A stretch of DNA of 64,000 nt from Escherichia coli (GCF_044324785.1 NZ_CP172127.1), one strand, 5' to 3'. Numbered from the stretch's first letter, positions 12,497 to 54,425 are shown. Program-made: numbers and translations. Notes: generated from the sequence alone by a model not told the origin.

Positions 12497-12530
12497 GTGG
12501 CTTAGCCAGGCTAAGCCACCGCCTTCTTTT
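12497..12530 (+). terminator. Intrinsic terminator after yigG (bidirectional hairpin at the ancestral yigG/corA junction)
   Basis: Stem 'ggtggcttagcc / ggctaagccacc' followed by 'gccttctttt'. Confidence 0.65.
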
Positions 12531-14240: not shown

Positions 14241-15191
14241 TTACAACCAGTTCTTCCGCTTAAAGTACAGATACGGTGCCAGGCCCGCGAGGATCATAAA
14301 GATAATCGCGCCTGGGTAGCCGAAACTCCACTTCAGTTCTGGCATAAACTCAAAGTTCATCCCGTAGCTGGAAGCAACCAGCGTCGGTGGCAGGAACACC
14401 ACGGATACCACCGAGAAGATTTTGATGATGCGGTTCTGCTCGATGTTGATAAAGCCCATAGCCGCCTGCATCAGGAAGTTCACCTTCTGGAACAGGGATT
14501 CGTTATGCGGCAGCAGGGATTCGATATCTCGCAGGATTTCACGCGCCTGCTCCAGTTGCCCACCCGGTAAGCGTGCTTTACGTACCAGGAAGTTGAGCGC
14601 GCGCTGGGTATCCATCAGACACAGGCGAACTTTCCAGCCGATATCTTCCAGTTCCGCCAGCGTGGAGAGCGCCTCGTCGTACTCATCGCCCTGATGCCCT
14701 TCCATAATTACCCGGCTCAACTGCTCCAGGTCGCTGTAGATATTTTCAATTTCATCTGCCAACTGTTCGATTTTGGTTTCGAACAGATCCAGCAGCAGCT
14801 CGTAGGCATTACCGTCTACCATCGACTGGCTACGGGCACGCATACGATACAGACGGAATGCAGGCAATTCACGCTCACGCAGAGTAAACAGACGACCATC
14901 ACGGATGGTAAATGCCACAGTGGAGTTACCGGCGTGATCTTCCGCATCTTCAAAGAAGAAGAAGGAGTGAATATGCAGGCCGTCATCGTCTTCAAAGAAA
15001 CGTGCCGATGCTTCGATGTCTTCCAGTTCCGGGCGGGTTGCCAGGCTCTGGCCAAGTTCAGATTGTACGCGCAGTCGCTCGTCGTCGTCCGGTTCGACAA
15101 GATCAATCCATACTGCATTTACAAGGGGTTGTGACTCTTCGACTTCCAGCCGGGTCAGTCGGTTATTTTCCAGTTGAAATGCGCTCAGCAT
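14241..15191 (-). CDS. corA: Mg2+/Co2+ transporter CorA
   Basis: Start placed at [31 protein letters not shown]... (316 aa); C-terminal GMN motif ([11 protein letters not shown]); 'cat' at 15189..15191. Confidence 0.93.
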
Positions 15192-23136: not shown

Positions 23137-24645
23137 GTGATCGGCACCTCGCGCCAGGATGGCTTTATGCACTATCGCAATGTGGTTTGTTTGTTGTCTT
23201 GTTCGTTGTTTTTATCGTCGGCATGGGGATGTCGGCTTTCCGCGCCTGAACATAATATTTACCAGAAACAGGGAAAAGGCGTGGTATACCTGCGCCCTTA
23301 TAAAGAAACAAATCTTTCTCTTCCTGACGTGAATTACAAAAGTTTGCGTCGGTTACCCAATTTATTAATAGACCCGACAACACTAGACGAATGGGATAAA
23401 GAACCGCCTCTGACTGATTTGACAACCGACTACCTCTATGAAGGCGCACAGGCCTGGTATCCTCATTACTCCTGGCATAGCGATGGTCGCTATATCCTTT
23501 ACGCGGGTGAAGTTGTGCAAAACCCGCCAGACAAACCTCCCGTCGATGTCGCCTCGTTCAAGGCGTGGGGTGATTTTGCCGCAGATAAACACAGTCTCTA
23601 TTTCGAAGGCAAGCGCACCGATAACAATGGCGGGGGAAATAGCTTAGATATCAAAACACTGCATCAGGTGGAATTCCGGCCTCCCTGGAAACCTGACTTA
23701 CTGGGGCTGATATTACGTGACGCTAATTTCTTATATATCAATGGGCATCGCCTCGCTGACCCCGAGAGTTTCCGTGTGCTGGCGCAGAAGTCCTGGGATC
23801 AGCGAGGAAAGTTTTCTACCGCGTTTAATCCCTGTGTGGCTATGCCATTTGGCCCCTGGGATACCCTGGCTCGTACACGGACCAAAATCCTGATCAACGG
23901 CGAACAGCTTGATGCCGACCCGGACACCTTTTCCGTCGTGCGCTGGATGCCCGGCTCACTCTTGACCTGGCGTGATAAAAACGGGCTACAGCGTAAAGTC
24001 CTCGACAAGGAAAATCTGGCGTGGGATGAAGATTTAACAAAGCACTGTCTGGATTTTTCTCTGCTGGAAAAGAAAGTGTTCTGGCGTAAAGGGCCTGACT
24101 GTAAACAGGAAGAGTTACCGGGGCTCGATCCTGAACAGTTCCACCCCATCAGTGATGCTGTCGCCCAGTATCAGGATTCGCTTTATACCATCATCGAAAC
24201 AGAGTCTGGTGACCGCAAGCTGGAGATCGTGAAACTTGATGATCCCAATCTTATTATCAACAAACGTTTCAACGCCGGGAAACGCCACGGCTATTTACTT
24301 ACGCGTGCCGAAGGGTGGCCATACCATTCCGGTTTACACGTGTTTGAATCTGACGGACCGCTGATCTTACTGGATAACCGCTCTCCGGATGAACGCGAAG
24401 CCCATCTTAATGACCATCCCTTTTTGCGCAGATGGTATGCCCGCGATAACCGCTACATTTACAGCTTTGATGGCGCGCAGCTCTGGCGATACCGCATCGC
24501 TGATCCGAAACAAGTTCGCTTAATCTGGAAGGAACAACATTCGGGATATGGCTATGGCGTAAATTACAAAACGGGATATCTGGACGGAAAAATTACTGAT
24601 GACGGCGAATTTATTCCTGCCCCGCGCAATGAGGCGACAAAATGA
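23137..24645 (+). CDS. Secreted repeat protein (DKNYY-like repeats), first of a tandem paralogue pair
   Basis: 502-aa ORF (an alternative start at 23167, MHYRNVVCLLSCSLFLSSAWGC..., gives a signal-like N-terminus); recurring motifs DKHSLYFEGKR, DANFLYINGHRL, DNRYIYSFDG; collinear similarity to the downstream ORF. Confidence 0.65.
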   Translation: MIGTSRQDGFMHYRNVVCLLSCSLFLSSAWGCRLSAPEHNIYQKQGKGVVYLRPYKETNLSLPDVNYKSLRRLPNLLIDPTTLDEWDKEPPLTDLTTDYLYEGAQAWYPHYSWHSDGRYILYAGEVVQNPPDKPPVDVASFKAWGDFAADKHSLYFEGKRTDNNGGGNSLDIKTLHQVEFRPPWKPDLLGLILRDANFLYINGHRLADPESFRVLAQKSWDQRGKFSTAFNPCVAMPFGPWDTLARTRTKILINGEQLDADPDTFSVVRWMPGSLLTWRDKNGLQRKVLDKENLAWDEDLTKHCLDFSLLEKKVFWRKGPDCKQEELPGLDPEQFHPISDAVAQYQDSLYTIIETESGDRKLEIVKLDDPNLIINKRFNAGKRHGYLLTRAEGWPYHSGLHVFESDGPLILLDNRSPDEREAHLNDHPFLRRWYARDNRYIYSFDGAQLWRYRIADPKQVRLIWKEQHSGYGYGVNYKTGYLDGKITDDGEFIPAPRNEATK

Positions 24646-25952
24646 AGGGTCAAATAATCACAGTTGCACTCATCCTGTTGGGGCACACATTTCTGACACC
24701 TGCTGTACAGGCCATAGAGTTCGACTATTACAATGATCACGGTGTCATGTCTTACGGTAAAGGTTATTGGGGGGATAAGAAAATCATTGCCCAATTTCCG
24801 AAGATGAACAGGGCCGATTTGCGCCTTGTGAAAAATATATCCGGGGAGACGGATTATATACCTTCCGATGAAATGAGCATAAAAAATGAGGAATACCACT
24901 GGGTGACAGACGGCCACGTTATTCTCTGGCGTGGCAAAATCGTTAGCAATCCACCGGGAACACCCACTGTCGATATTGCCAGCTTTCAGGCTATGGGCCG
25001 CTTCGCGGTCGATAAATATAGCCTCTATTTTGACGGACAGCGCACCGAAAGTAATAGCGGCGCGTCACGTGTTGATCTGGCGACACTAAAAGCTATCGAA
25101 GGTAACTCTACCACGCTGGTGGATAGTAAAAATCTCTACTTGTCCGGTAGACGTCAGGGGAGCAGCAGTAATGTTACTGTATTAGAAAAAAGATGGTGGG
25201 GTATTAATCCACGTCTTATGAGTGTAAACAGAAATTTGTATTCCAATGATCTGCTTATCCGCAGTGGGCAGAATATTTATTTAAATGGCGTTCACCTTAC
25301 GGCGAATGCAGACTCATTTGAGATAATTCGCTGGATACCTCATTCACTGCTGGTTTTTCGCGATAATAAGGGTATGCATCGTTATCCCTTTGGGCAATTG
25401 TCTGGCAAAGCGATACCCGTAGATGATGACGTCTCTTTTGAAGTAGGAGAAAGTCGCGTTCGCTGGCGTAAACAGCTCACGCCCGACCGTCAGTGGAGCA
25501 AGTGGATAGACCTACCAGGTATTGAACCTGAACAATTCCATCTGATTACTGGCAATATTGCGCAATATAAAGATCGGTTGTATGTAACAAAATTATCGAC
25601 ATTTGGTGAAGACCAGCTTGAGATAATCCCGCTGGATACGCCAGACCTGGTCATTGATCGCTCATTTAATAGCGGCAAACAGCATGCTTATTTTATCCGC
25701 CAATTACGGTCAAAGAGCGTGCAAATTATTCCAGTTAACGGTCCGCTAACTAAAAACGATCGCTTCGCTTATGACGATCGCAATGTTTATACATGGACCG
25801 ATACAGAGGTAAGGATTACGCCCTCCCCCTGCCCGGCGAAAACACGCGTCAGAGAAGAGAATGTGCGTGAACTTCACAACAGAGACATTATTATTCCGTT
25901 GACGGATGAATCATGCCAGAACGCAGCAGACGAGCAAACTTTGAAGCCCTGA
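24642..25952 (+). CDS. Secreted repeat protein (DKNYY-like repeats), second of the tandem paralogue pair
   Basis: 436-aa ORF with signal peptide MKGQIITVALILLGHTFLTPAVQA; start overlaps the upstream stop (ATGA); motifs DKYSLYFDGQR, DSKNLYLSGRR, QNIYLNGVHL, DRNVYTW. Confidence 0.65.
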   Translation: MKGQIITVALILLGHTFLTPAVQAIEFDYYNDHGVMSYGKGYWGDKKIIAQFPKMNRADLRLVKNISGETDYIPSDEMSIKNEEYHWVTDGHVILWRGKIVSNPPGTPTVDIASFQAMGRFAVDKYSLYFDGQRTESNSGASRVDLATLKAIEGNSTTLVDSKNLYLSGRRQGSSSNVTVLEKRWWGINPRLMSVNRNLYSNDLLIRSGQNIYLNGVHLTANADSFEIIRWIPHSLLVFRDNKGMHRYPFGQLSGKAIPVDDDVSFEVGESRVRWRKQLTPDRQWSKWIDLPGIEPEQFHLITGNIAQYKDRLYVTKLSTFGEDQLEIIPLDTPDLVIDRSFNSGKQHAYFIRQLRSKSVQIIPVNGPLTKNDRFAYDDRNVYTWTDTEVRITPSPCPAKTRVREENVRELHNRDIIIPLTDESCQNAADEQTLKP

Positions 25953-25999
25953 CCCCATGCCGCTATACTGCCGCCATCACTTAAAAACAGGATACAACA

Positions 26000-26320
26000 A
26001 TGAACGACAGTGAATTTCATCGCCTGGCTGATCAACTCTGGCTGACCATTGAAGAGCATCTGGACGACTGGGATGGCGATAGCGATATCGACTGCGAAAT
26101 CAACGGCGGCGTACTGACCATTACCTTTGAGAACGGTAGCAAAATCATTATCAACCGTCAGGAACCGCTGCACCAGGTGTGGCTGGCAACCAGGCAGGGC
26201 GGCTACCATTTCGACCTGAAAGGCGATGAGTGGATTTGCGATCGCAGCGGCGAAACCTTCTGGGATTTGCTGGAACAGGCGGCGACGCAGCAGGCGGGTG
26301 AAACAGTCAGTTTCCGCTAA
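26000..26320 (+). CDS. cyaY: Frataxin homologue CyaY
   Basis: 106-aa [59 protein letters not shown]... Confidence 0.93.
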
Positions 26321-33486: not shown

Positions 33487-33693
33487 AAAAAAACGCCTGC
33501 TCTTATTACGGAGCAGGCGTTAAAACAGGTCTGTATGACAACAAGTGGGTGCTTCACTCAACGTTGTGTCCATGGTGTCTGATGAGGCATAAGCGACATC
33601 TGTCAGTGGACGATAAGCACCGTAAACGGCTCTGCGTCATTCCGGAGTTTATGAGGCACTAAGGCGAACATAAGAGATGGAATGAGCATCTAC
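33487..33693 (-). ncRNA. glmZ: Small regulatory RNA GlmZ
   Basis: Minus-strand sequence GTAGATGCTCATTCCATCTCTTATGTTCGCCTTAGTGCCTCATAAACTCCGGAATGACG...AACGCCTGCTCCGTAATAAGAGCAGGCGTTTTTTT matches the GlmZ sequence as I recall it, including its terminator hairpin and U-tail; located in the hemY-aslA spacer. Confidence 0.9.
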
Positions 33694-37256: not shown

Positions 37257-37333
37257 TGGTCGGCGAGAGAGGATTCGAACCTCCGACCCACTGGTCCCAA
37301 ACCAGTTGCGCTACCAAGCTGCGCTACTCGCCG
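37257..37333 (-). tRNA. proM: tRNA-Pro
   Basis: Minus strand reads CGGCGAGTAGCGCAGCTTGGTAGCGCAACTGGTTTGGGACCAGTGGGTCGGAGGTTCGAATCCTCTCTCGCCGACCA, with encoded CCA. Confidence 0.95.
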
Positions 37334-37375
37334 AAATACTGCTTTTTGAATTTTTAGTTCAATTCTTTAAAGTCG

Positions 37376-37462
37376 TGGTGCGAGGGGGGGGACTTGAACC
37401 CCCACGTCCGTAAGGACACTAACACCTGAAGCTAGCGCGTCTACCAATTCCGCCACCTTCGC
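37376..37462 (-). tRNA. leuT: tRNA-Leu (anticodon CAG)
   Basis: Minus strand reads GCGAAGGTGGCGGAATTGGTAGACGCGCTAGCTTCAGGTGTTAGTGTCCTTACGGACGTGGGGGTTCAAGTCCCCCCCCTCGCACCA (long variable arm). Confidence 0.95.
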
Positions 37463-37482
37463 ATTGTCACAACTTCTAATAA

Positions 37483-37559
37483 TGGGGTGGCTAATGGGAT
37501 TCGAACCCACGACAACTGGAATCACAATCCAGGGCTCTACCAACTGAGCTATAGCCACC
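37483..37559 (-). tRNA. hisR: tRNA-His
   Basis: Minus strand reads GGTGGCTATAGCTCAGTTGGTAGAGCCCTGGATTGTGATTCCAGTTGTCGTGGGTTCGAATCCCATTAGCCACCCCA (with extra 5' G). Confidence 0.95.
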
Positions 37560-37616
37560 ACTACAAATCTTGTTACGCGGTATTACTACCACCGCAGCTC
37601 AAGCGCCGGGACTAAA

Positions 37617-37693
<77 letters not shown>

Positions 37694-37795: not shown

Positions 37796-39181
37796 TTATT
37801 CCTCCAGTTTATGCGCTTTACCGTGGCGATTAAGCCCAAAAACTTTATAAATCGCCGTCACCGCCAGCATAAAGATGATGCCGACAAACAGCGACATACG
37901 CGTATCTTCATTAAAGTACATGCCGATCAAAACGCAAATCAGGAATGCCATTGTTACGTAGTTGGCCCACGGGAACAGGATTGAGCGGAACGGATGGCTG
38001 GCAATCGCCGCTTTATGCGCACGACGAAAACGCAGCTGGCTTATCAATATCACAAACCATGGCACCATCCCCGGAAGCACGCTGGCACTGTAGACGTAGA
38101 CAAACACACGCTGCGGATTGGGAATGACGTAGTTCAGGCATGAGCCAATTAACAGGATAGCAATAGATACTGCCACACCCGCAACCGGTACGCCGTGACG
38201 GGAAACTTTCGCCATCGCCGCCGGTAACTGACGGTTTTTCGCCAGTGCGTAGAGCATACGTCCGCAACTGTACATGCCGCTGTTACAGCCAGAGAGCGCA
38301 GCCGTCAGCACCACAAAGTTGATAATGCCCGCCGCTGCGGTAATACCGATTTTGGCGAAAGTCAGTACGAACGGGCTGCCGTTACTGCCTATTTCATTCC
38401 ACGGGAAGATGGTGACGATAACGAAAATCGCGCCTACGTAGAAAATCAGGATACGCCACAACACTTTGCCTACGGCACTGCGCAGCGTCACCTGCGGATT
38501 CTTCGCTTCACCGGCAGTAATGCCAATCAGCTCCACGCCCTGGTAGGACGCCACCACAATACACAATGCGGTCAGGAACCCTTTCCAGCCACCCGCAAAG
38601 AAACCGCCATGCTCTGTGAGATTGCTAAAACCAATCGACTGCCCGCCATTGCCAAAACCAAAGAAAATCACGCCCAGGCCAATGACAATCATCACGATAA
38701 TCGTGGTGACTTTGATCATCGCGAACCAGAACTCGATTTCGCCGTACAACCGCACCGCCGCCAGATTCGCCAGCGCCACCAGCGCCACCGCGATCAATGC
38801 GGGTATCCACTGCGCCATCTCCGGGAACCAGAACTGGACATAAACGCCAATGGCGGTGATTTCTGAGATCCCCACCGCCATCCACATAAACCAGTAAGAC
38901 CAGGCGGTGAGATAACCAAAGAACGGGCTCATATAACGATGCGCGTAAACGGCGAACGAACCGGTAACCGGTTCGAGGAACAACATTTCGCCCATTGAAC
39001 GCATGATGAAAAAGACGAACAGCCCGGCGATGATATAGGCCAACAATACGGATGGCCCGGCCCATTTCAGGGTACTGGCGGCCCCCATAAACAGGCCGAC
39101 GCCAATGGTGCCCCCCAGGGCGATGAGTTCGATATGTCGAGCTTCCAGCCCACGCTGTAGCTCTGGTTTGTTATCTGCCAT
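37796..39181 (-). CDS. yifK: APC-family amino acid permease
   Basis: 461-aa 12-TM-like [40 protein letters not shown]... Confidence 0.9.
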
Positions 39182-39371
39182 AAATCCTCGTGTTGTGTTT
39201 GCATGCTTTCCGGTGTTACCGGTTATCGTTATGGGTACATCGAGTGTTGCGAATGTTTTCGTAATTCAGGAGAAATGGCAAATAAAGCATTAAAAATTTG
39301 AATGCTTTGTGTAATAAAAAAGCAGACAGGCGACGAAGTGACCACTCCGTCGCTTTACAAAGAGAGGAAAA

Positions 39372-40112
39372 TCAGAGGTTGCCGGTGTAATGCCAGCGTA
39401 AATAACGCAGCAAACGAAGCTGACGCTTAATGCGGCTCGGCTGCGAAAGTAGGCGGTAGAGCCACTCCAGCCCCAGCGTTTGCCAGATTTTCGGTGCGCG
39501 TTTCACGTGACCGGTGAAAACATCGTAAGTCCCGCCAACGCCCATATACAGCGCATCCGGATGCACCAGACGGCAGTCGCGCATGAAGATCTCCTGCTTT
39601 GGCGATCCCATCGCAACGGTGACGATTTGCGCTCCACTGGCATGAATGCGTTCAAACAGCGCCTGACGCTGCTCGGGTTTAAAATAACCATCCTGACTGC
39701 CAACGATATTCACATTCCACTGATTGCGCAGTTTAGCTTCAGTTTGCGCCAGCACTTCATGTTTACCGCCTACAAGAAATACCGGCGTCCCTTCTTTGCC
39801 TGCGCGCGCCATCAGCTCTTCCCAGAGATCGGCCCCGGCAACGCGGGAAACCTGCGCCTGCGGGTACTTTTTACGTACTGAACGTACAACGCTGATGCCA
39901 TCCGCATATTTAAATTCGGCAGCGTTAATTAACTCCCGGACCTCGGCGTTATCTTCAATGGTCAGCATTTTTTCGGCATTAATGGCAACCAGCGTTCCCT
40001 GCTTAAGCTGCCCGTCAGCGAACAGATAATCGAGGGCGTGCTGCATATCACGCCAACCAATCAACTGTAAGCCACGCAGCGTATAGGTCGGTGCCGTGGT
40101 ATTGTTATTCAT
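39372..40112 (-). CDS. wecG: UDP-N-acetyl-D-mannosaminuronic acid transferase (ECA biosynthesis)
   Basis: 246-aa ORF, last gene of the wec/rff cluster by position. Confidence 0.88.
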
Positions 40113-40114
40113 TG

Positions 40115-41467
40115 TTATCCTTCAACCTGCGTCCGGAGCGATGATTTTGTTCGTTTATGAATGAGTCCGGCGCTTTCAAAAAGCCAGTACAACAGTTTTG
40201 CGATCATCAGACATGCGCCGAAGACCACGATAAAAAAGACCACGCGTGAGACAAACGAATCCAGCCCTTCACGCGCCAGCACGATCATATTGAAGATCGC
40301 CCCAAAGCAGAAACTGTGCAATATCGCAGCCTTATAGCGATTAGTCTCTCGGTTGCCCAGCTCATACAGCCAGTCGAACCATTTGATGATCAGTCCAACC
40401 ACGATCGCCCCGAGCGGGATGAACAACGCGCCGCCCATAACAACCAGTGAGCCTATAAGCGTAGGCGAGATCGCCAGCCCGGAGTGGTTATTCAGCACTT
40501 CCCAGGTAAAGTAGTTGGCGGAGTTCAGTACCATACTCGGGCGACCCGGCCACAGCCAGGAAGGGATAAAGACATAGAAATCGCGGACAATGGGAGCCAG
40601 ACCCTGGAAGTCGATGTTGTCGTAGTTCTGCAACAGCAATGCCAGATTCTCCCACGGCGAAAAGGTATCGCGGGTGAGATAGAGAAACGTATAGAACGCT
40701 TCATCACCGCTCACATTCATTCCATAGCGTTTTAGCGCCAGCCAGAACATGCCAACAATCCCCAGCACGCCCGCTGCCGCCAGCATCCACAACGAAATCC
40801 AGCCGCGAATAATGCCAATAAACAGGAAGATAGCGAATGCGATGATGATATTGGCGCGAGTGCCGCCGACAATCATATAAGTCAGCAAGCCAAAAGCGAC
40901 CGTGCTGACGAGGAAAAACAGCCACGCTTTGCTGTCCTGGCGCAGAAAGTAGACCACCAGCATCGCCGGGATGAAAAAGTAAAAGAAGCGTTTTAACGCC
41001 ACGCCGGAGACTTCACTGGAGAAGATCTGACTGTAGGAGTTAAGCCGGAACAGCAAAAAGCCGTTGTGCATGAAGAAGATGCCGACGCTTACCAGCGCGA
41101 TGCCCATCAGGATCACCCACGTAAGATTGGTCTCCACGCGGTTCATGGTAAACAGCGGACGGCGCGGTACATCAGCAACGCGTTTGCGTAGGCGGGTTTT
41201 GTAGGTGACGTAGTAAACCGCGTAGAAGCAGCCCGCAGAAAGCAACGCCTGCAACAAGATTTCTGGCGGCGCGACACCAACATCAAAGCGAAATACCAGC
41301 ACGCTGGTCAGCGGGAAGCCGAAGAAAAAGGTGAGCAAAAACAGCAATGAAAAGAAGACATTGAAGTTAAAGCGCACACGGCGAAACTCAAACCAGGTCA
41401 GCGTGGCAATAAACAACGTACAGAGCAGCCAGACAACAAACAGGCCACTGAATTGCAGCAGACTCAT
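40115..41467 (-). CDS. wzyE: ECA polymerase
   Basis: 450-aa polytopic membrane ORF; start overlaps the wecF stop. Confidence 0.88.
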
Positions 41468-42543
41468 GCGACCTCCCCGGCGGCAATAGCCAACGCCCGC
41501 TGCCAGCCTTGCAGATAGTTCGGGCTAAAGAAGGCAATGGTGTTTTTATCCACCGACGCCAACTGGCGCTGCGCTTCACGCACAATATCCTCGTTGAGAT
41601 CATCGGTAGTAAACAGTACTGGCAAATGCTGTTCCGTCATATCCTGCCAGAACGGATTTTCCCGGTTAAGCACACAAGGAATGCCCGCCTGAATCAGTAA
41701 GCAAAGCGTACCAATGCCCTGCTGGCGGGCAAAAATAAAGTAACCGAGATCGCACTGGCGAAGTAGCGTCAGATAGGCGTCAAATTCCAGTTTTTCGCTC
41801 AGAACTTGTAGATTTTCTTCGCTGAATAACTCCAGTCCCGCCTGACGAACTTCCTCGATGTACGCTTCGTTATTAGGCGGATATCCCATCGGCACCACCA
41901 CTTTTACCGTATCGCCAAATTGCTGATGAACGGCGCGCAAGGCAGCAATATGCTCATTGCTGCGGTCACCGGAGTTCCCCACCAGAATGGTCATTTTTCC
42001 TTCACGTTGCCGATCGTTCGCCATCGTATTAAGAGAAGGGTCCATCCGCGTCGGGAAGTACAGCAGTTCTCCCCGCACCTTTGGATGCGTTTTGGCAAAA
42101 AAGCTCAAATCACCGCGGGTGGCAAATACACAGCCGACTCTCTTTTGCGCCAAGCGACGTAGCGGGTAAAAAAGCTTATATCTCAAGCCACTGGAAAGCT
42201 CGTACAGGTCTGCCCCCCAGATATGCCAGTAAAACTGGCTGGGCTTAATGCCACCACTCAGCAGAGCCAGCCACAGTGTGGGATTGAACTGACCGTGGAA
42301 GAAAAAACGCTGCTGACGGTTAGCTTTTGCTTTCGCGATGACCGCTTCCGCCAGCGATTTTTTCCCAGGGAAAAATTGCACAGAAAGCGTCGGACAGCTA
42401 TCACTTAAGCCGTCGTCCTTGCCAACAACCATAAACTCGCGCGCGTGCTCGCTCGTCGCGGCCAGCGCGTCATTGAAAAACCGCAAAACGGTTCGGTTAT
42501 GGTGAGGGATATCCGATCCCAGTACGTGAATCAGTACAGTCAT
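41464..42543 (-). CDS. wecF: TDP-Fuc4NAc:lipid II Fuc4NAc transferase
   Basis: 359-aa [28 protein letters not shown]... Confidence 0.88.
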
Positions 42544-43790
42544 GCCCGCCTACGCCAGAGTAAAAACACGCCACAACAAAGAGAAAAATAGACGATATAA
42601 GTTGCCATATATGCCTGCGCCGCGCCCAGTGCACCATGCGCAGGGATTAGCCAGTGGGCAAATACCATCAATAAAGTGAACTGGCTGACTTCCGCCAGAA
42701 TATAAAACCGCAATGACGCTTTGGCGATCACCAGATAACCAAAGACATAAGCGCCCACTTTTAACACATCACCCACCAACTGCCAGGCAAAGAGATCGCG
42801 CATAGCGGTAAATTTATTCGACAACAGCAGCCAGATAGCAAAATCACGCAGCAACCAGACGGTAAAACTCGCCGCCGCCACTGCCGGTAAGACGAATTTC
42901 AGCGATTTAACCACTTCCCGGGTGATATCGCGCTTTTCCGTTAGCCGCGACAACGTGGGCAGCAAATATACGCTGAACGATGCCGTAATAAATTGCAGGT
43001 AGGCATCGGAAATACTACTCACCCCTTGCCAGATCCCCACTTCATCCCAGCTATACTGCGCCGCCAGCAGTTTACGCATCATGATGTAAGCAACGGGCAA
43101 GGTCACCGACGTAATCAACGCCATGAGCGTAAATTTGCTCAACTGCCCTGCCAGGCCGTTATCCCAGCTGGGTTTCAGATAGCTTAACGGGATTGCACCA
43201 CGCTTAATTAGCATGATGACGGCAGGAATCACCACCAGCGCGGGAATCAACGCCAGCCCCAGCAACGCCCCTTCATAACCGCCCAAACGGTAACTGACGT
43301 AGTACGCGAGAACGCCAATCAGGCTGCCGACAATCAGGGATAACGCATTACCTGCGGCATCGCGAAAGCCTTTCATCAACGCCAGTAACAGGTTGCCCCA
43401 GGCGATCCCCATTTGCACCAACGCCACTAAACGCACCAGCCCCTGATAGTCGGTATTACCAAACAATCCCTGGCTAATTGGGGCTGCCGCTAGCACAAAA
43501 ACCAGCGCCATCAGCGTAGAGAAGCCAAGTACCATCGCTGATGAAGTGCCTACCACGCGGCGCAGCTGCTGCGGATTATCATGGTACTGAGCAACGTATT
43601 TGGTTACGCCATTAAAGATGCCCGCCCCGGCAAGCACGCCGAGCACGGTAATCAACTGGCGGAAATTTGCCGCCAGCCCAAGCCCCGCAGGACCAAATGA
43701 CACCGCCAGCAACTTACCTACCAGTAACCCGGCACCAATCTTGACCAGTGTACTGGCCGCCGTCCACAAGGACGCTTTTGCCAACGACAT
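42540..43790 (-). CDS. wzxE: ECA lipid III flippase
   Basis: 416-aa polytopic membrane ORF; overlapping stop/start with neighbours. Confidence 0.88.
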
Positions 43791-43791
43791 A

Positions 43792-44922
43792 TCAGGAGAA
43801 GTAGTTCAACAAGGTCGCAATTACCGTGCGCTGATTGACGGGCGACAGGTTGTAGAACAACGGCAGGCGCAGCAGGCGCTCGCTCTCTTTGGTGGTGTAG
43901 CGATCTTCACCGTGGAACTCACCAAAGCGTTCCCCCGCAGGGCAACCGTGCAGCGGAATGTAATGGAACACCGCCATGATTTCCGCTTCTTTCAGAAAGT
44001 TAATCAACGCGCTCCGGTCATCAATATCCCGCAGTTTAATGTAGAACATATGCGCGTTCTGCACGCAGCCATCGGGAATCGACGGCAGCTCGATACGCCC
44101 GGCTTTCGCCAGAGGTGCTAACGCATCGTAGTAGTTTTGCCACAGCGCCAGACGTTGCTGATTGATACGATCCGCTGCTTCCAGTTGCGCCCACAGGTAC
44201 GCAGCTTGCAGATCGGACATCAAATAGCTGGAGCCGATATCGCGCCAGGTATATTTATCGACCTGACCACGGAAGAACTGGCTGCGGTTAGTGCCTTTTT
44301 CACGGATGATCTCGGCGCGTTCGATCAACGCTTTATCGTTAATCAGCGTCGCACCGCCTTCACCGCCCGCCGTGTAGTTTTTGGTTTCATGGAAGCTAAA
44401 GCAGCCAATATGACCAATGGTTCCCAGTGCACGCCCTTTGTAAGTGGACATCACGCCCTGAGCGGCATCTTCCACCACAAACAGATTATGCTTTTTCGCC
44501 AACGCCATAATGGTGTCCATTTCGCAGGCCACACCCGCGTAATGGACCGGTACGATAACGCGCGTTTTGTCGGTGATCGCTGCTTCAATCAACGTTTCGT
44601 CGATGTTCATGGTGTCCGGGCGAACATCCACAAAAACGATTTTCGCGCCACGCAGCACAAAGGCATTGGCGGTGGAGACAAAGGTGTAGCTCGGCATGAT
44701 CACTTCATCGCCAGGCTGGATATCGAGCAGCAGCGCCGCCATCTCCAGCGAAGCGGTGCAGGATGGCGTCAGTAACACTTTGGCGCTGCCAAAACGTTGC
44801 TCCAGCCACTGCTGGCAGCGACGGGTAAAACCGCCATCGCCGCACAGTTTGCCGCTACCCATTGCCGACTGCATATAGTCGAGTTCGGTTCCCACCACCG
44901 GCGGTGCGTTAAATGGAATCAT
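43792..44922 (-). CDS. wecE: dTDP-4-amino-4,6-dideoxygalactose transaminase (DegT/AHBA family, PLP-dependent)
   Basis: 376-aa ORF MIPFNAPPVVGTELDYMQSAMGSGKLCGDGGFTRRCQQWLEQRFG... Confidence 0.9.
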   Translation of the reverse strand: MIPFNAPPVVGTELDYMQSAMGSGKLCGDGGFTRRCQQWLEQRFGSAKVLLTPSCTASLEMAALLLDIQPGDEVIMPSYTFVSTANAFVLRGAKIVFVDVRPDTMNIDETLIEAAITDKTRVIVPVHYAGVACEMDTIMALAKKHNLFVVEDAAQGVMSTYKGRALGTIGHIGCFSFHETKNYTAGGEGGATLINDKALIERAEIIREKGTNRSQFFRGQVDKYTWRDIGSSYLMSDLQAAYLWAQLEAADRINQQRLALWQNYYDALAPLAKAGRIELPSIPDGCVQNAHMFYIKLRDIDDRSALINFLKEAEIMAVFHYIPLHGCPAGERFGEFHGEDRYTTKESERLLRLPLFYNLSPVNQRTVIATLLNYFS

Positions 44923-44926
44923 GTGA

Positions 44927-45601
44927 TCACCTGTATAACCAGTACGCGGTGCTTTCTACATTCGCACCACTTTGTATGTATCGTTTTAGCGCGGCGGTGT
45001 TGCCCATTTGGGTCGCCACCCGCAAAGTTGTTTTACCGCGAGCATACGCCCAGTTTAGCGCCGTTTGCATCAGCTCAGCACCTGCACCTCGTCCAGCCAG
45101 CAGGCCAATTCGCGCATCTGTCGCATTGAGTTCCCGTAAAGAGACATAGCCGCGAATATCGCCGGACGCCGCACGTAAAATCAGACATTGATGATCAAAG
45201 GTGCCGCGCACGGCATTTTCAATCCACTGTGCATAAAAGCGTCCGCTGGCGTCAGGCGCATACCACGGCGCACGAAAACGGCTTTGCGCAAATGCGGCGC
45301 TGGCTAACTGACGTAATGCGGGAATATCGGTCTCTTGTGCCACTACAGCACCACTATCACTGACATTGTTCACGGGTAGCGCCAAATCAACTTCACCTTC
45401 TACCAGGGAGAATCCCAGCTGTTGCAGGGCATCCAGTTCACCCGTATTTGATGCCGCAATTTTGGCCTGTACCCGTGACCACGGCGCTAAGGTGTCTGAC
45501 GTCAGGAGCGGTGCTTCAGGCGTGATGCGCACGATGGCGCTGTTAACACCAAAGAAGGCGTTTTCCCAGGTTAGTGGCTCAATACTGGCGCGGACGGGCA
45601 C
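44927..45601 (-). CDS. wecD: dTDP-fucosamine acetyltransferase (GNAT)
   Basis: 224-aa ORF; overlaps the 3' end of rffH by 23 nt; the start codon is uncertain and shorter forms are possible. Confidence 0.8.
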
Positions 45602-46460
45602 GAAGTAACTCCAGCAGATATTGGCCGTAGCCGGTTTTCGCCAGCGAGCTGGCGGCGCGCTTCACGCCTTCGTCATCAAGCCAGCCGTTACGCCAGGCGA
45701 TCTCTTCCAGGCAGGCAATCTTAAAGCCCTGGCGTTTTTCTACCGTCTGTACAAAGGTACTGGCTTCAATCAGGCTGTCGTGAGTACCGGTGTCCAGCCA
45801 GGCAAATCCGCGCCCGAGCAGTTCAACGGTCAGGTTACCCGCCTCGAGGTACATCTGGTTGATGGAGGTAATCTCCAGTTCACCACGCTCCGACGGCTTC
45901 ACCTGCTTTGCGTACTCCACGACTTTACTGTCGTAGAAATAAAGTCCGGTCACCGCCCAGTTTGACTTCGGCTGTTTTGGCTTTTCTTCCAGCGAGATAG
46001 CGCGGAAATTGTCGTCAAACTCCACGACGCCAAAGCGTTCCGGATCCATCACCTGATAGCCAAATACCGTCGCGCCTTGCGTGCGCGCCGCAACATGACG
46101 CAACTTCGGACTGAAGCCCTGTCCGAAGAAGATGTTATCGCCCAGCACCAGACAAGAAGGTTCACCGTTGAGGAAGGTTTCACCGATGATAAAGGCCTGC
46201 GCCAGACCGTCCGGACTGGGCTGTTCGGCATATTCCAGCTGGATACCGAACTCACTACCATCGCCCAGCAGGCGCTGGAAATAACCTTTATCTTCCGGCG
46301 TAGTGATGATGAGAATTTTGCGGATACCGGCCAGCATCAGCACCGACAGCGGATAGTAAATCATTGGCTTATCGTAAATCGGCAACAGTTGCTTCGATAC
46401 GCCGCGCGTAATCGGATGCAATCGGGTACCGGAACCGCCTGCCAGGATAATACCTTTCAT
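45579..46460 (-). CDS. rffH: Glucose-1-phosphate thymidylyltransferase
   Basis: 293-aa [49 protein letters not shown]... Confidence 0.92.
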
Positions 46461-46478
46461 GTTTGCCTCCGCTGAAAA

Positions 46479-47546
46479 TTAGCCTTTCAGACCTAAACGC
46501 TCGCCCTGATAGCTACCGTCCTGCACCTGCTTCCACCAGCTTTCATTAGCCAGATACCACTGCACCGTTTTACGCATTCCACTTTCAAAGGTTTCCTGCG
46601 GCAGCCAGCCAAGTTCACGGGCAATTTTCGAAGCATCAATGGCATAACGCAGATCATGCCCCGGACGGTCAGCGACAAAGGTGATCAGGTCACGATAGTG
46701 CGCCACGCCGTGCGGCTTGTTCGGGGCCAGTTCTTCCAGCAACTCGCAAATGGTTTCCACAACATCGAGATTCTTACGCTCGTTGTGACCACCAATATTA
46801 TAGGTTTCACCGACTTTCCCGGTGGTCGCCACGCAATACAGCGCGCGGGCGTGATCTTCCACATACAGCCAGTCACGGATTTGCTGCCCGTTGCCATATA
46901 CCGGCAGCGGTTTACCCGCCAGCGCGTTGAGGATCATCAGCGGGATCAGTTTTTCCGGAAAGTGGTAAGGACCGTAGTTATTCGAGCAGTTGGTGATAAG
47001 CGTCGGCAGACCATAGGTCCGCAGCCAGGCGCGTACCAGATGGTCGCTGCTGGCTTTTGAAGCGGAATAAGGGCTGCTCGGCGCATACGGCGTGGTTTCG
47101 GTGAAGAAATCATCCGTCGAGTGCAGGTCACCATATACTTCGTCGGTGGAAATATGATGAAAACGGAACGCTGATTTTTTATCTTCCGTCAGCGCATTCC
47201 AGTAAGTCCGCGCCGCTTCAAGCAATGTATAAGTCCCGACAATGTTGGTTTCAATAAACGCTGCCGGGCCGTCAATAGAACGGTCAACATGGCTTTCGGC
47301 TGCCAGATGCATGACACAGTCTGGCTGATGCTCAGTGAATACGCGCGCCAGTTCTGCCCGATCGCAGATATCAACTTTCTCAAAGGCAAAGCGCTCGCTT
47401 TGCGCGACCGGTGCCAGCGACATCAGATTTCCGGCGTAGGTCAGCTTATCGACCACTATCACCGCGTCGCTCGTTTCGTTGATGATATAACGCACCAGCG
47501 CTGAGCCAATAAACCCGGCACCACCTGTTATCAGAATCTTTCTCAT
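46479..47546 (-). CDS. rffG: dTDP-glucose 4,6-dehydratase
   Basis: 355-aa [25 protein letters not shown]... with Rossmann motif and YxxxK. Confidence 0.92.
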
Positions 47547-48808
47547 CAGCGCCAGACTCCTTTGGCATCGACGACATACTGCTGATGGACATTGTCGCCA
47601 TTGATAACTTTGAACTGACTATGATCGACCAGCATCACCAGCACGTCTGCCGTTGCCAGCGCCTCGTCAAGCTGCGCCAGAGTACAAAGCCCAGTCAGTT
47701 TCTTCGGCAACTGGTGGATGTTAGGCTCAACAACCAGCGTTTCGCCGCTGTGCCACTGGGCGATCAGTTCAGCGATTTCCATCGCCGGGCTTTCGCGCAG
47801 GTCATCAATATTCGGTTTAAACGCCAGACCAAAGCAGGCGATTTTCAGTTCGCTGGCGCGTTTATCGGTAGCCGCCAGGCAGTCGGCAACCGCCGCTTTC
47901 ACCTGATCGATAACCCAGAACGGTTTGTGATCGTTCACTTCGCGCGCGGTACGGATAAGCCGCGCCTGCTGGGGGTTCTGTGCCACGATAAACCACGGAT
48001 CAACAGCGATGCAGTGGCCGCCCACGCCAGGGCCAGGCTGAAGAATATTGACGCGAGGGTGACGATTCGCCAGGCGAATCAGTTCCCAGACGTTAATTCC
48101 CTGATCGGCACAAATCAGCGACAATTCATTAGCAAAAGCGATATTCACATCGCGGAAGCTGTTTTCGGTGAGCTTACACATTTCCGCCGTCCGCGAGTTA
48201 GTGACGACACACTCACCTTCGAGGAAAATTTTGTACAGTTCGCTGGCGCGGGCCGAACAAACCGGCGTCATACCACCAATCACGCGATCGTTTTTAATCA
48301 GCTCGACCATAACCTGGCCCGGTAACACGCGTTCCGGGCAGTAAGCAATGTTGACGTCCGCCTGCTCGCCCACCTGCTGTGGGAAAGTGAGATCCGGACG
48401 CATCTCTGCTAACCATTCTGCCATCTTCTCGGTTGACCCCACCGGCGAGGTGGATTCAAGGATCACCAGCGCGCCTTTTTTCAGCACTGGCGCAATGGAG
48501 CGAGCAGCCGATTCAACGTAGGTCATATCTGGCTCATGATCGCCTTTAAACGGCGTGGGTACAGCAATCAGCCAGGCATCCGCTTCAACTGGCGTCGTGC
48601 TCGCTCGTAAAAAACCGCCTTCTACGGCAGTTTTTACTACGCTCGCCAAATCAGGTTCGACGATATGGATTTCGCCACGATTGATGGTATCAACCGCATG
48701 TTGGTTGATATCGACACCAATCACCTGTTTTTGCCGTGAGGCAAACGCTGCTGCTGTAGGCAGCCCGATGTAACCCAGTCCGATAACAGAAATGGTCGCA
48801 AAACTCAT
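47546..48808 (-). CDS. wecC: UDP-N-acetyl-D-mannosamine dehydrogenase
   Basis: 420-aa [36 protein letters not shown]... Confidence 0.92.
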
Positions 48809-49935
48809 AGTGATATCCGATTATTTTTTAACGCTTCCAGAATGCGAGAGCATGCCTGACCATCACCATACGGGTTATGGGCGCGGCTCATAGTTTGATA
48901 TTCGTTTTCGTCTTTTAAAAGACGCGTCACTTCCTCGACAATTCGCTGCTTATCCGTGCCTACCAGACGCACCGTACCCGCCGTCACCGCTTCCGGACGC
49001 TCAGTGGTATCGCGCATCACCAGCACCGGTTTCCCCAGCGAAGGCGCTTCTTCCTGAATGCCGCCTGAGTCGGTCAAAATCAGCCAGGCGTGGTTCATCA
49101 GCCAGACAAACGGTAAATACTCCTGGGGATCGATCAGAATGACATTTTTCACATGCCCCAGAATGCGATTGACCGGCTCTCTGACGTTCGGGTTGAGATG
49201 CACCGGATAGACAATCTGGATGTCCTGGTGCGTGGTGGCGATGTCTGCCAGCGCATGGCAGATTTCTTCAAAGCCACGACCGAAGCTCTCACGCCTGTGA
49301 CCGGTCACCAGAATCATTTTTTTATTGGGGTCGATAAACGGGTAATTTGCCGCCAGTTCTGAACGCAGCGTATCGCTGCTCATCACCTGGTCACGCACCC
49401 ATAACAGTGCATCAATAACTGTATTACCGGTAATGAAGATTCGGCTGTCAGCAACATTTTCACGCAGCAAGTTTTGCCGGGAAGTTTCGGTTGGAGAGAA
49501 GTGATACATCGCCAGATGCCCGGTCAATGTACGGTTAGCCTCTTCCGGCCACGGCGAATAGAGATCGCCCGTGCGCAGACCAGCCTCAACGTGACCAACA
49601 GGAATACGCTGATAAAACGCCGCCAGGCTGGTTGCCAGCGTTGTAGTAGTATCGCCGTGAACCAGCACGACGTCTGGTTTGAACTCGGCAAGAATTGGTT
49701 TTAGCCCTTCCAGAATCCGACAGGTTATCTCTGTCAGGCCCTGTCCTGGCTGCATTATGTTGAGATCGTAGTCAGGTACAATGGAAAAGAGTTTCAGCAC
49801 CTGATCGAGCATCTCCCGATGCTGCGCAGTGACGCAAACTTTAGCCTCAAAAAAAGGATCTTTTGCCAACGCATGCACCAACGGAGCCATCTTGATGGCT
49901 TCCGGGCGCGTACCAAATACAGTCAGTACTTTCAC
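48805..49935 (-). CDS. wecB: UDP-N-acetylglucosamine 2-epimerase
   Basis: Start placed at a GTG codon (plus-strand 'cac' 49933..49935) giving [26 protein letters not shown]... (376 aa); the ORF has 14 additional upstream in-frame codons. Confidence 0.9.
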
Positions 49936-49990
49936 ATCGATTCTCTTCGAATAAGCGGCGAGCGCCTTTGCGCTCACCGCAGCAGTGTTG

Positions 49991-51040
49991 CTATTTCGAG
50001 CAACGGCGGGTTAATGCGACACCAGCCCCGGTCAGCCCCCCGACAATGCCCCACATAATCATCAGGAAGGCACGACGTGGGCTATCGCGTTTTACCGGTT
50101 CTTCCGGCGTACGCAAATAGCGATAGGTCTGAAAACGCGGATCCAGGGTTGGACCAACATTCAGGGTGTTTAACATGGCCCGATTCTGATCATAGTCGAG
50201 ATCAAAGGCCGGACCGACGGCCTGTAAATTTTCCAGTCGAGCCTGGAGCATTGGACGCCCAAGCAGGAACATTTCTGAATCAGGCAATTCCTCGGCAGGC
50301 ACATCTGTCGCACTGCGCGAAATATTATGCTGCTCTGCAATTTTCAGCGCCTGTTCAATACTGTTCATCCGGCGGTCGTAGATGGCTTTCGCCACCTCTT
50401 CCTGACGCTTCACCTGTGCTTTCATCTGGATGGTGCGCGCCGCCCATGCACCTTTCAGCTCATCATTCAGATGGCTGGCTGCACGCTGGCTGGCAAAAGC
50501 AACATACTGACGTAACAGGTTATTAGCGTCAGGCGCGGTTTCGGCAATCAGCTTCACGCTGTCATTGACCGCGCGGGTAAAGTCTCCGGGGATAAACTGG
50601 ATGTTATTAATCATTTCATCCAGCAACGCCGCATCGGCTTTGCTGTTGCCCACCATCCGCTGCTTGTAATAGTCGGTTTGCAGCCAGAACTCTCTGCGGG
50701 TATCCCACGAGGCCAGTTGCATAACAAACTCTTTATAGGCTTCGTCCATGACCGATGGTTGGTCGGCAGAAGCCATGTTTGAACGGACATCCAGGTTACG
50801 CAAAAATTGCTGCTGTGAGTAATATCCCCCCAGCATATTCACCGTTGGACGATCGGTAATCGCCGTCGAGCTCCACTCCTGACGAGCAAAAAAAGTATAC
50901 GCCAGCGCGATTAACGCAAACGCCAGTCCCATGCCAATAATCCACAGCTTCCCAGCCCACAAGGTACGAAACAACCCACGAATATCCAGTTCATTTTCAG
51001 CGTCTTCGGCCGGTTTCCCAGGCATTGGTTGTGTCATCAC
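49991..51040 (-). CDS. wzzE: ECA polysaccharide chain-length modulation protein
   Basis: 349-aa ORF with N- and C-terminal transmembrane segments flanking a periplasmic coiled-coil domain. Confidence 0.9.
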
Positions 51041-51048
51041 ATCCTCAT

Positions 51049-52152
51049 TTATTTGGTTAAATTGGGGCTGCCACCACGATTTCTACGCAGTCTGCGTTTT
51101 ATGCGCTTAATAAAGCGAGCAACTTTCCAGGCACGCTTAATGCAATATCCATAGAGGAAGAATGCTAGCAAAAAGAGCACCAGCATGACCCACTCCGGGA
51201 CAAAATGAGAGTATTCTGCCAGCACGCCAATAGAGGCAAGCAGTGCTGCGGCAAGGGTAATCAGCACAAATGCCTGGCGGGAAGTAAACCCGGCACGCAT
51301 GATCAAATGGTGAATATGCTGACGGTCAGGAGAGAACGGGCTCATGCCTTTACGCAGGCGACGGTACATAATCGCCACCATATCCATTAGCGGAATGGCG
51401 ATAATCCATAATGCGGTAACCGGGCTTATTGGGTGCGTTTTTCCCTGAGTCGTTTCCAGCAGGATCCAGATAACGGTAAAACCAATCAGCGTACTACCCG
51501 CATCACCCATGAAGACTTTGTAGCGGCGCCCGAGGATACCAAGGTTGAGCATGATATAGGGCAGGATGGCGGCGATCATCGCAAAGCACCAGATTGCGAG
51601 GCTGGTTTGCCCGTCGAACCACAAAATCATACCGATTGCTGCAAACGAGACGCAGGACAGCCCACCCAGCAAGCCATCAATGCCATCGACCATGTTGAAT
51701 GCATTAATGGCCGCCCAGACGGCAAATAGCGTCAGGAAGTAGCCAAACGGTCCGAGCACCATCTCCCAGGAGCCAAAGATATAACCCAGGCTACTGAGAT
51801 ACAGTTTGCCGAACACCATCATAACAATGCCAACAGCGGCCTGTATGGTGGCACGGATTTTTACGCTGATATCAAAACGGTCATCCAGCGCGCCAATGAA
51901 AACAAGCACACCGGCACAAGCGAGATAGAGAGATGCATGCGGAATATAGTAATCGACGATTCCGAACGTGAAGCAAATCCCTGCGTAAACCGAAATCCCC
52001 CCAACGAGAGGTATCAATCCCTGGTGACGTTTGCGGAAGTTTGGTTTATCCACTAAACCGACTTTTTTTGCCACCTTACGGGCAAAAAACAGAAACAGTG
52101 TCGTGAATAAAAAAATACTGATGAGATCAGTACTCACTGTCAGTAAATTCAC
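51049..52152 (-). CDS. wecA: UDP-GlcNAc:undecaprenyl-phosphate GlcNAc-1-phosphate transferase
   Basis: 367-aa polytopic membrane ORF MNLLTVSTDLISIFLFTTLFLFFARKVAKKVGLVDKPNFRKRH... Confidence 0.92.
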   Translation of the reverse strand: MNLLTVSTDLISIFLFTTLFLFFARKVAKKVGLVDKPNFRKRHQGLIPLVGGISVYAGICFTFGIVDYYIPHASLYLACAGVLVFIGALDDRFDISVKIRATIQAAVGIVMMVFGKLYLSSLGYIFGSWEMVLGPFGYFLTLFAVWAAINAFNMVDGIDGLLGGLSCVSFAAIGMILWFDGQTSLAIWCFAMIAAILPYIMLNLGILGRRYKVFMGDAGSTLIGFTVIWILLETTQGKTHPISPVTALWIIAIPLMDMVAIMYRRLRKGMSPFSPDRQHIHHLIMRAGFTSRQAFVLITLAAALLASIGVLAEYSHFVPEWVMLVLFLLAFFLYGYCIKRAWKVARFIKRIKRRLRRNRGGSPNLTK

Positions 52153-52330
52153 AATGCATGCTCTCAGAGAAAAATATTAGCAGAAGTATAACCACGAAGG
52201 CCTTTATTCAGAAGGGAAACTCTGCTCTGAACCCACCAACCTTGTGCAAAAAACAACCACGTGATTCGTGTTATGCGCAATAAACAAACATAACTCGTAT
52301 TTGTTATAACGCCGTTAAGATTACAGATAT

Positions 52331-52365
52331 AAAAACAAAACGCCACGTAAATACGTGGCGTTTTT
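52331..52365 (-). terminator. Intrinsic terminator downstream of rho
   Basis: Hairpin 'cgccacgta aata cgtggcg' flanked by A/T runs on both sides (bidirectional). Confidence 0.7.
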
Positions 52366-52379
52366 GGCATAAAACAAAT

Positions 52380-53639
52380 TTATGAGCGTTTCATCATCTC
52401 GAAGAAATCGTCATTGGTCTTGGTCATTGCCAGTTTATTAATGAGGAATTCCATTGCATCGATTTCGCCCATCGGGTGAATGATTTTGCGCAGGATCCAC
52501 ATTTTCTGCAGTTCTTCCTGAGTAGTGAGCAGCTCTTCTTTACGGGTACCGGAACGGTTGTAGTCGATTGCCGGGAAGACGCGTTTTTCAGCGATCTTAC
52601 GAGAGAGGTGCAGTTCCATGTTGCCTGTACCTTTAAACTCTTCGTAGATAACTTCGTCCATCTTGGAACCGGTATCGATAAGCGCGGTAGCGATGATGGT
52701 CAGGCTGCCGCCCTCTTCCACGTTACGCGCCGCACCGAAGAAGCGTTTCGGACGATGCAGGGCGTTGGCATCCACACCACCGGTCAGCACTTTACCTGAC
52801 GCCGGAACAACGGTGTTGTAAGCGCGCGCCAGACGAGTGATGGAGTCGAGCAGAATGATAACGTCTTTCTTGTGCTCAACCAGGCGTTTCGCCTTCTCGA
52901 TCACCATTTCCGCAACCTGAACGTGGCGAGATGCGGGTTCGTCAAAGGTAGAAGCAACAACTTCACCTTTTACCAGTCGCTGCATCTCGGTTACTTCTTC
53001 TGGACGTTCGTCGATCAGCAGAACCATCAGCACACAATCCGGGTGGTTGTAAGCAATGCTCTGAGCAATGTTCTGCAGCAGCATGGTTTTACCGGCTTTC
53101 GGCGGTGCCACAATCAGACCACGCTGACCACGACCGATAGGTGATGCCAGATCCAGTACGCGAGCGGTTAAATCTTCAGTAGAACCGTTACCACGTTCCA
53201 TACGCAGACGAGAGTTTGCGTGCAGCGGGGTTAAGTTCTCAAAGAGGATTTTGTTGCGGGCGTTTTCAGGTTTGTCGAAGTTAACTTCGTTAACTTTCAG
53301 CAGCGCAAAATAGCGTTCACCTTCTTTCGGCGGGCGAATCTTACCAGAGATGGTATCACCAGTGCGGAGGTTGAAACGGCGGATTTGGCTAGGGGAAACG
53401 TAGATGTCATCAGGACCGGCGAGGTAGGAGCTGTCTGCGGAACGGAGGAAACCAAATCCATCCTGCAATATCTCCAGTACGCCATCACCAAAGATATCTT
53501 CGCCACTCTTTGCGTGCTGCTTCAGGATGGCAAAAATAATGTCCTGCTTACGCATACGAGCCAGGTTTTCCAGCCCCATATTTTCGCCGAGAGTGATCAG
53601 CTCAGAAACCGGCGTATTCTTTAATTCGGTAAGATTCAT
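52380..53639 (-). CDS. rho: Transcription termination factor Rho
   Basis: The ORF extends to 53711, but the start is placed at [57 protein letters not shown]... (419 aa). Confidence 0.95.
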
Positions 53640-53965: not shown

Positions 53966-54295
53966 TTACGCCAGGTTAGCGTCGAGGAACTCTTTCAACT
54001 GACCTTTAGACAGTGCGCCCACTTTGGTTGCCGCCACTTCACCGTTTTTGAACAGCAGCAGAGTCGGGATACCACGGATACCATATTTCGGCGCAGTGCC
54101 AGGGTTTTGATCGATGTTCAGTTTTGCAACGGTCAGTTTGCCCTGATATTCGTCAGCGATTTCATCCAGAATCGGGGCGATCATTTTGCACGGACCGCAC
54201 CACTCTGCCCAGAAATCGACGAGGATCGCCCCGTCCGCTTTGAGTACATCCGTGTCAAAACTGTCGTCAGTCAGGTGAATAATTTTATCGCTCAT
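53966..54295 (-). CDS. trxA: Thioredoxin 1
   Basis: Start placed at [50 protein letters not shown]... (109 aa, WCGPC active site); the ORF extends upstream to 54400. Confidence 0.95.
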
Positions 54296-54425
54296 ATATA
54301 ACTCCACAGGAATAAGCCTGGCGTGTTGGTTTCGTTGTTGGTGTAACATTAACCAACTTAAGGTTGACTTTATTTCACCGGATACGCTTTCGTAAAGCAA
54401 TAGTAAGCTGATATTCTACCACACT

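Follow-up and report, generated by a model that had tools for sequence, protein, structure and literature searches.

A 64,000-nucleotide (nt) stretch of Escherichia coli DNA (GCF_044324785.1, NZ_CP172127.1; hereafter the window) carries on its minus strand, at 39372-52152, what its sequence marks almost certainly as the canonical E. coli wec (rfe-rff) operon for enterobacterial common antigen (ECA), complete and apparently functional. Twelve contiguous, uninterrupted open reading frames (ORFs) occupy exactly this whole span in the ORF list, in the order wecA, wzzE, wecB, wecC, rffG, rffH, wecD, wecE, wzxE, wecF, wzyE, and wecG. The locus is a textbook E. coli ECA operon that is already known, and nothing in it is novel. 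A reading made from the sequence alone had proposed that all 12 ECA genes are intact on this strand and stand in this order, and the proposal held up against NCBIfam matches, the RefSeq annotation of strains N3 and K-12, and a base-by-base comparison. All 12 proteins scored above the curated cut-off of the matching equivalog-level NCBIfam model over their full length. No evidence contradicting the identification as an ECA operon was found.

The comparison with the reference cluster of K-12 MG1655 (3967916-3980696) was free of gaps: both segments are 12,781 nt long and differ by 279 mismatches (97.8% identity) with zero indels. At the protein level, this corresponds to 0-6 amino-acid changes per protein and 27 in total over the 12 proteins. 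All 12 genes are in frame with the reference boundaries and equal their K-12 counterparts in length, and the frameshifts or premature stops that would have spoken against the sequence-only reading were absent from every one of them. Using Megablast, the segment was matched in 5,425 of 5,426 complete E. coli genomes, nearly always over its full length; the closest genome was that of strain N3 (99.5%), and the remaining E. coli matches ranged from 95 to 99%. RefSeq gives the same 12 gene names in N3 and in K-12 MG1655, with rffH called rfbA in N3. The chromosomal context, with rho upstream and thrP/yifK plus four tRNA genes downstream, is colinear with K-12 and N3, and the entire 64-kb window is colinear with N3.

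That close relative also supplies the one argument for decay of the cluster, as its wecA is annotated as frameshifted. By this token, the cluster in the window would be a partly decayed, cryptic pseudogene locus, which we regard as next to impossible: the window wecA is a full 367-amino-acid (aa) ORF one residue away from the K-12 protein, and no gene shows an internal stop or a change in length. In the N3 annotation, the frameshifts affect both wecA (locus L001, 14678-15780) and hemD (L003, 30784-31523); they may be assembly errors or real lesions.

The gene products cover the known ECA pathway (PMC7439462, PMC12212991), and all coordinates below are on the minus strand. The chain is initiated by WecA (rfe, 51049..52152, 367 aa, TIGR02380, 575 bits), the UDP-GlcNAc:undecaprenyl-phosphate GlcNAc-1-P transferase, which transfers GlcNAc-1-P onto undecaprenyl phosphate. 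UDP-ManNAcA is made by WecB, the UDP-GlcNAc 2-epimerase (48805..49935, 376 aa, TIGR00236, PDB 1f6d), and WecC, the UDP-ManNAc dehydrogenase (47546..48808, 420 aa, NF008286, 860 bits, protein identical to that of K-12), and is added by the ManNAcA transferase WecG (rffM, 39372..40112, 246 aa, NF002980, 444 bits, 2 aa from K-12). Four enzymes make dTDP-Fuc4NAc: RffH, glucose-1-phosphate thymidylyltransferase 2 (45579..46460, 293 aa, TIGR01207, 533 bits; rffH is the K-12 name); RffG, dTDP-glucose 4,6-dehydratase 2 (46479..47546, 355 aa, NF007582, 831 bits); WecE, the dTDP-4-keto-6-deoxyglucose transaminase (rffA, 43792..44922, 376 aa, TIGR02379, 737 bits, 1 aa from K-12); and WecD, the dTDP-fucosamine acetyltransferase (rffC, 44927..45601, 224 aa, NF008212, full length). 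This sugar is added by the Fuc4NAc transferase WecF (rffT, 41464..42543, 359 aa, NF002752, 858 bits). The resulting lipid III(ECA) is flipped by the flippase WzxE (42540..43790, 416 aa, NF011679, 809 bits) and polymerized by the ECA polymerase WzyE (40115..41467, 450 aa, NF002820, 868 bits), with chain length set by the regulator WzzE (49991..51037, 348 aa, as in the K-12 annotation; NF008645, 691 bits, full length). The start codon is GTG for wecA, wecB, and wecD and ATG for the other nine genes, as in K-12.

To place these features in a wider frame, species-representative genomes were scanned with WecE, which gave 80 loci; those numbered L005-L059 are wec clusters across Enterobacterales, with L058 coming from a Pasteurellaceae genome. 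The 12 proteins were mapped onto each locus, and the start of each gene was taken as the start codon nearest to the position homologous to the E. coli start. Gene content could be compared at the 52 loci whose sequence spans the cluster: 25 contain all 12 genes, 22 are without rffG and rffH (L009, L011-L013, L015-L020, L024, L025, L030, L037, L041, L044-L046, L049, L050, L053, and L058), and 5 are without rffH only (L022, L039, L042, L043, and L057). In three of these reduced clusters, those of Kluyvera (L022), Pseudocitrobacter (L009), and locus L017, the 23 nt by which wecD overlaps rffH in other genomes are still found at the 5' end of wecD, which suggests secondary loss.

The start sites of wecB and wecD were the points that the sequence-only reading put up for comparison with homologs. 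Two in-frame GTG codons lie at the 5' end of wecB, at 49977 (the longest ORF, 390 aa) and at 49935 (376 aa). The GTG start proposed for this gene was borne out at 49935, the codon used in both the RefSeq and the K-12 annotation: position 1 of TIGR00236 and residue 1 of PDB 1f6d align to residue 15 of the 390-aa ORF, and more distant epimerase structures begin at that same residue. Of 54 sequences, 53 have GTG at the homologous codon, and the AAGAGA motif before it hardly varies. A start at the upstream codon would give the longest ORF and a gap of 13 nt after wzzE, and this codon is also present in E. coli and some Citrobacter. We nonetheless consider it very improbable. GTG 49977 has no Shine-Dalgarno match upstream (+0.4 kcal/mol) and falls within the stem of a conserved hairpin described below; the structural and profile homologs of WecB all begin 14 codons past it, and neither RefSeq nor the K-12 annotation gives the 390-aa form. 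Moreover, in 36 of the 54 sequences (E. albertii and 35 other loci), an in-frame stop lies inside this extension, at most 14 codons upstream of the wecB start, and the long ORF is therefore not conserved.

The comparison likewise favored GTG 45601 as the start of wecD. This codon is the first possible start of the ORF, with an in-frame stop in the upstream extension, and NF008212 matches the product end to end; the crystallized form of WecD has 224 aa, with PDB 2fs5 covering residues 2-224. The start of wecA is GTG 52152, as in K-12, and the homologous codon is GTG at every locus where the 5' end is present, except the Pasteurellaceae locus L058. For wzzE, the best start is ATG 51037, which has a GAGGA Shine-Dalgarno motif 4 nt before it; the longest ORF is one codon longer, from GTG 51040. 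It should be noted that the GTG starts of wecA (52152) and wecB (49935) are essentially invariant in about 50 of about 52 Enterobacterales lineages, despite variable third-codon positions around them. This invariance of two weak start codons suggests selection to hold initiation low or tunable.

The genes of the operon are tightly packed. Measuring each junction from the stop of the upstream gene to the next start, with negative values for overlaps, we found that five of the 11 junctions overlap and that four more are spaced by 1-11 nt, three of these by 1-4 nt. All five overlaps listed in the sequence-only reading were exact: wecB>wecC (-4, ATGA), wecC>rffG (-1, TGATG), rffH>wecD (-23), wzxE>wecF (-4, ATGA), and wecF>wzyE (-4, ATGA). 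The spaced junctions are wecA>wzzE (+11), wecD>wecE (+4), wecE>wzxE (+1), wzyE>wecG (+2), and rffG>rffH (+18), and the only long gap is that of wzzE>wecB (+55). As a baseline, we used the other tight same-strand junctions in the window, as annotated in the colinear N3 genome; of these 11, 6 overlap by 1 or 4 nt, namely hemC/hemD, dapF/yigA, yigA/xerC, xerC/yigB, and two accessory gene pairs. Since overlaps of these two lengths are equally frequent at these other junctions, they belong to operons in general: the pattern in the wec genes is real, but it is ordinary operon architecture and nothing exceptional.

The same geometry was found throughout the order. The overlap of -4 is present at wecB/wecC in 44 of 53 loci, at wzxE/wecF in 48 of 54, and at wecF/wzyE in 46 of 53, and the +1 gap of wecE/wzxE in 43 of 54. 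At rffH/wecD, the overlap is exactly 23 nt in each of the 28 sequences in which the rffH 3' end is present. The wecD start codon within this overlap varies. Serratia, Yersinia, Edwardsiella, Photorhabdus, and similar genera use ATG there and the Escherichia/Citrobacter group uses GTG, and this difference amounts to an Arg-to-His change in the overlapping RffH frame. The wecC/rffG junction (47544-47548 in the window, minus strand) overlaps in 31 of 31 loci; the -1 form with an ATG start occurs only in Escherichia/Citrobacter, and in the other genera (loci L014-L056) rffG starts at the same residue position with TTG (19 loci) or GTG (6 loci) and an overlap of -4. Overall, the modal geometry of the five overlapping junctions is kept in 83-100% of loci. 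Judged from these alignments, the overlaps and the GTG starts are ancient and conserved across Enterobacterales.

Translational coupling at the wec junctions, which the sequence-only reading had drawn from the overlaps, is a reasonable and plausible reading, and it is strengthened by the order-wide conservation of the overlaps. Abutting or overlapping junctions would let ribosomes ending one gene start the next. Termination-reinitiation would be the likeliest route of translation for wzxE and wecC, since both are without a good Shine-Dalgarno sequence and lie 1-4 nt from the upstream stop; the energy of the anti-Shine-Dalgarno duplex is +0.4 kcal/mol for wzxE (no match) and -3.3 kcal/mol for wecC (a weak one). 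Two observations weigh against coupling as a general property of the operon. Several downstream genes could do without it because each has its own strong Shine-Dalgarno site, with values of -8.2 kcal/mol for rffG, -9.5 for rffH, and -11.7 for wzyE (and -7.0 for wzzE), and the 1- and 4-nt overlaps are, as described above, as frequent at the other tight junctions of the window (6/11).

The latter count is also the starting point for a different explanation, in which the overlaps arose neutrally, through operon compaction and dual-coding constraint, and each gene is initiated independently. Usable Shine-Dalgarno sequences lie within the upstream gene for rffG, wzyE, wecF, and wecD, and an existing overlap is constrained by both reading frames, so that its conservation alone is no proof of function. 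We view this explanation as possible, though we lean against it, on account of two features of the alignments. The genes whose Shine-Dalgarno match is absent or weak, wzxE (+0.4 kcal/mol) and wecC (-3.3 kcal/mol), begin no farther than 1-4 nt from the stop of the gene before them in some 80% or more of the loci, and the phase of the overlap outlasted changes of the start codon, among TTG, GTG, and ATG at rffG and between ATG and GTG at wecD. A literature search for translational coupling returned nothing specific to the wec operon; one paper containing both "translational coupling" and "wecB" used wecB merely as a target of CRISPR interference (CRISPRi).

The spacer between wzzE and wecB harbors a GC-rich intercistronic hairpin (49955..49980, minus strand), with an 11-bp stem and a 4-nt loop followed by UUAUUCG. 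The 66-nt region around it folds with an energy of -29.6 kcal/mol (z = -4.5 versus shuffles). In 22 Enterobacteriaceae spacers, compensatory changes were found in 7 of 8 consensus pairs; 87.5% of the cells of the comparison were paired, versus 40-69% when the 3' partner was slid, and both sides had changed in 29 cells, versus 10.9 +/- 3.3 in shuffles. Outside this family, Yersiniaceae, Hafniaceae, and Budviciaceae have a longer wzzE-wecB spacer with two hairpins, and in Pantoea, Erwinia, and Rahnella the spacer is small or absent. No matching Rfam family was found for the hairpin, and a literature search found no paper that treats the wzzE/wecB stem-loop individually, while the RNA 3' end associated with it is already listed in a genome-wide table.

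This 3' end appears in the K-12 Term-seq tables (Adams et al. 2021, PMC7815308, supplementary files 1 and 3) at 3970120 under two growth conditions. This corresponds to position 49948 of the window, 7 nt beyond the stem and 13 nt short of the wecB start, and K-12 and the window have the same sequence around it. The site was reported with about 1,100-1,200 reads, a coverage drop from 176 to 130, a Rho score of 1.37 ("No", not Rho-dependent), and an intrinsic-terminator score of 2.88, for which the authors' threshold is 3.0 (PMC7815308). The hairpin is probably a leaky terminator or an RNA-end-forming element, which would divide wecA-wzzE from wecB-wecG and let expression of the former run somewhat above that of the latter. 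Several points speak against termination. The tail 3' of the stem in E. coli has 4 U in 7 and is imperfect, and it was not called in the terminator scan; a good U-tract is present in E. albertii and L030, but it is absent in most other genera, among them Citrobacter and Enterobacter. The Term-seq signal is also weak, with a score below the threshold and only a partial fall in coverage. Given a U-tract that is poor in E. coli and missing from many genera, the hairpin could just as well shield the RNA upstream of it from 3' exonucleases.

Taking the hairpin as an element that forms leaky RNA ends, one may ask whether it acts together with the near-invariant, weak GTG starts of wecA and wecB. The two could form an undescribed post-transcriptional set-point, present in Enterobacteriaceae and in part order-wide, that would uncouple the output of wecA-wzzE from that of wecB-wecG and limit both the flux into ECA intermediates that consume undecaprenyl phosphate and the supply of the WecB-dependent glycan that serves as receptor of phage N4. 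This proposal is speculative, and we put it forward as rather less probable than not by a wide measure.

Transcription of wec starts at promoters upstream of wecA, and NsrR sites, like PdeL sites, are reported for the operon. PdeL is a reported repressor of it (PMC8669472). The rho-wecA intergenic region of the window (52153..52379, minus strand, as are its parts) was analyzed by a terminator scan, by alignment with K-12 and other genera, and for allele frequency. The terminator scan placed the rho terminator hairpin at 52337-52364, and the alignment showed a conserved proximal region that contains the wecA leader and a TATACT hexamer at 52185-52190. Upstream of the wec proximal promoter lies a 66-nt segment (52249-52314) that is unrelated to the 78 nt at the same place in K-12 and E. 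albertii. The window carries a minority allele here, as the rho-wecA segment was found at 95% identity or more in 361 of 5,425 complete E. coli genomes. A promoter scan gave fewer sigma-70-like sites than shuffled sequence (8 versus 15.6) and hence did not support promoters inside the operon. A further entry in the K-12 Term-seq tables, a weak 3' end inside an ORF, falls 30 nt into wecA (rfe), at K-12 position 3967945, or about 52123 in the window (minus strand). The hairpins around this site are weak, at about -7 kcal/mol, and vary from family to family.

An Rfam scan, run over the whole window at gathering thresholds and over 39000-52500 at E <= 1, gave no RNA family within the cluster. The sole match there was to a small nucleolar RNA (snoRNA; E = 0.45) and was taken as chance, and the four largest antisense ORFs on the plus strand (149-246 aa) had no Pfam match and were taken as spurious. 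Elsewhere in the window, gathering-level Rfam matches were obtained for the small RNA GlmZ (33487-33693), a four-tRNA cluster (37260-37693) that is argX-hisR-leuT-proM in K-12, and the thermometer of the trxA 5' untranslated region (54266-54365), all on the minus strand and all expected in this chromosomal region. A 144-bp 3' fragment of corA occurs twice, at 12530-12673 and 14241-14384, and the copies are 95% identical. In N3, they enclose two accessory genes next to corA, one of the YPO3983 family and one of DUF943, and the arrangement of fragments and accessory genes looks like a small insertion islet. By colinearity with N3 (L003, 23705-26505), two further overlapping accessory genes, encoding a DKNYY-family protein and a hypothetical protein, lie at about 23200-26000 between lptM and cyaY, a position from which we presume this pair to be absent in K-12.

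The value of this analysis lies mainly in annotation quality control, as it establishes that the genome carries a complete ECA operon. Comparison across species also cleanly supports two reference starts that had at one time been annotated differently, those of the 376-aa WecB and the 224-aa WecD. Neither the wzzE-wecB hairpin nor the GTG starts that wecA and wecB keep throughout the order amount to a discovery; both are small leads.

Compared with known systems, the operon in the window corresponds to that of K-12 MG1655 (b3784-b3794 plus b4481, named wecA-wzzE-wecBC-rffGHC-wecE-wzxE-wecF-wzyE-rffM in that strain). Gene set, gene order, gene lengths, start codons, and every junction distance are identical, as are the total length of 12,781 nt and the flanking rho and thrP genes; the window differs in its 279 nucleotide and 27 amino-acid substitutions and in the replaced segment of the rho-wecA spacer. 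With the wec clusters of other Enterobacterales (Citrobacter, Serratia, Yersinia, Edwardsiella, Photorhabdus, and others), it has in common the gene order, the GTG starts of wecA and wecB, the ATGA overlaps of wecB/wecC, wzxE/wecF, and wecF/wzyE, and the 23-nt rffH/wecD overlap, while the wzzE-wecB spacer differs among these clusters, from an overlap up to 184 nt. The hairpin in this spacer shares with intercistronic hairpins and leaky intrinsic terminators found within operons a covarying, GC-rich intercistronic stem and, in K-12, a 3' end 7 nt downstream. It differs from them in a U-tract that is poor or absent in most genera, and there is no Rfam family for it. Finally, RffG and RffH are paralogs of the products of the O-antigen rfb/rml genes rfbB and rfbA, share both of their reactions, and show partial redundancy with RmlB and RmlA (PMC7439462). 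RffH falls under the cut-off of the RfbA-specific model NF012024 (444 versus 588 bits), and rffG and rffH sit inside the wec operon.

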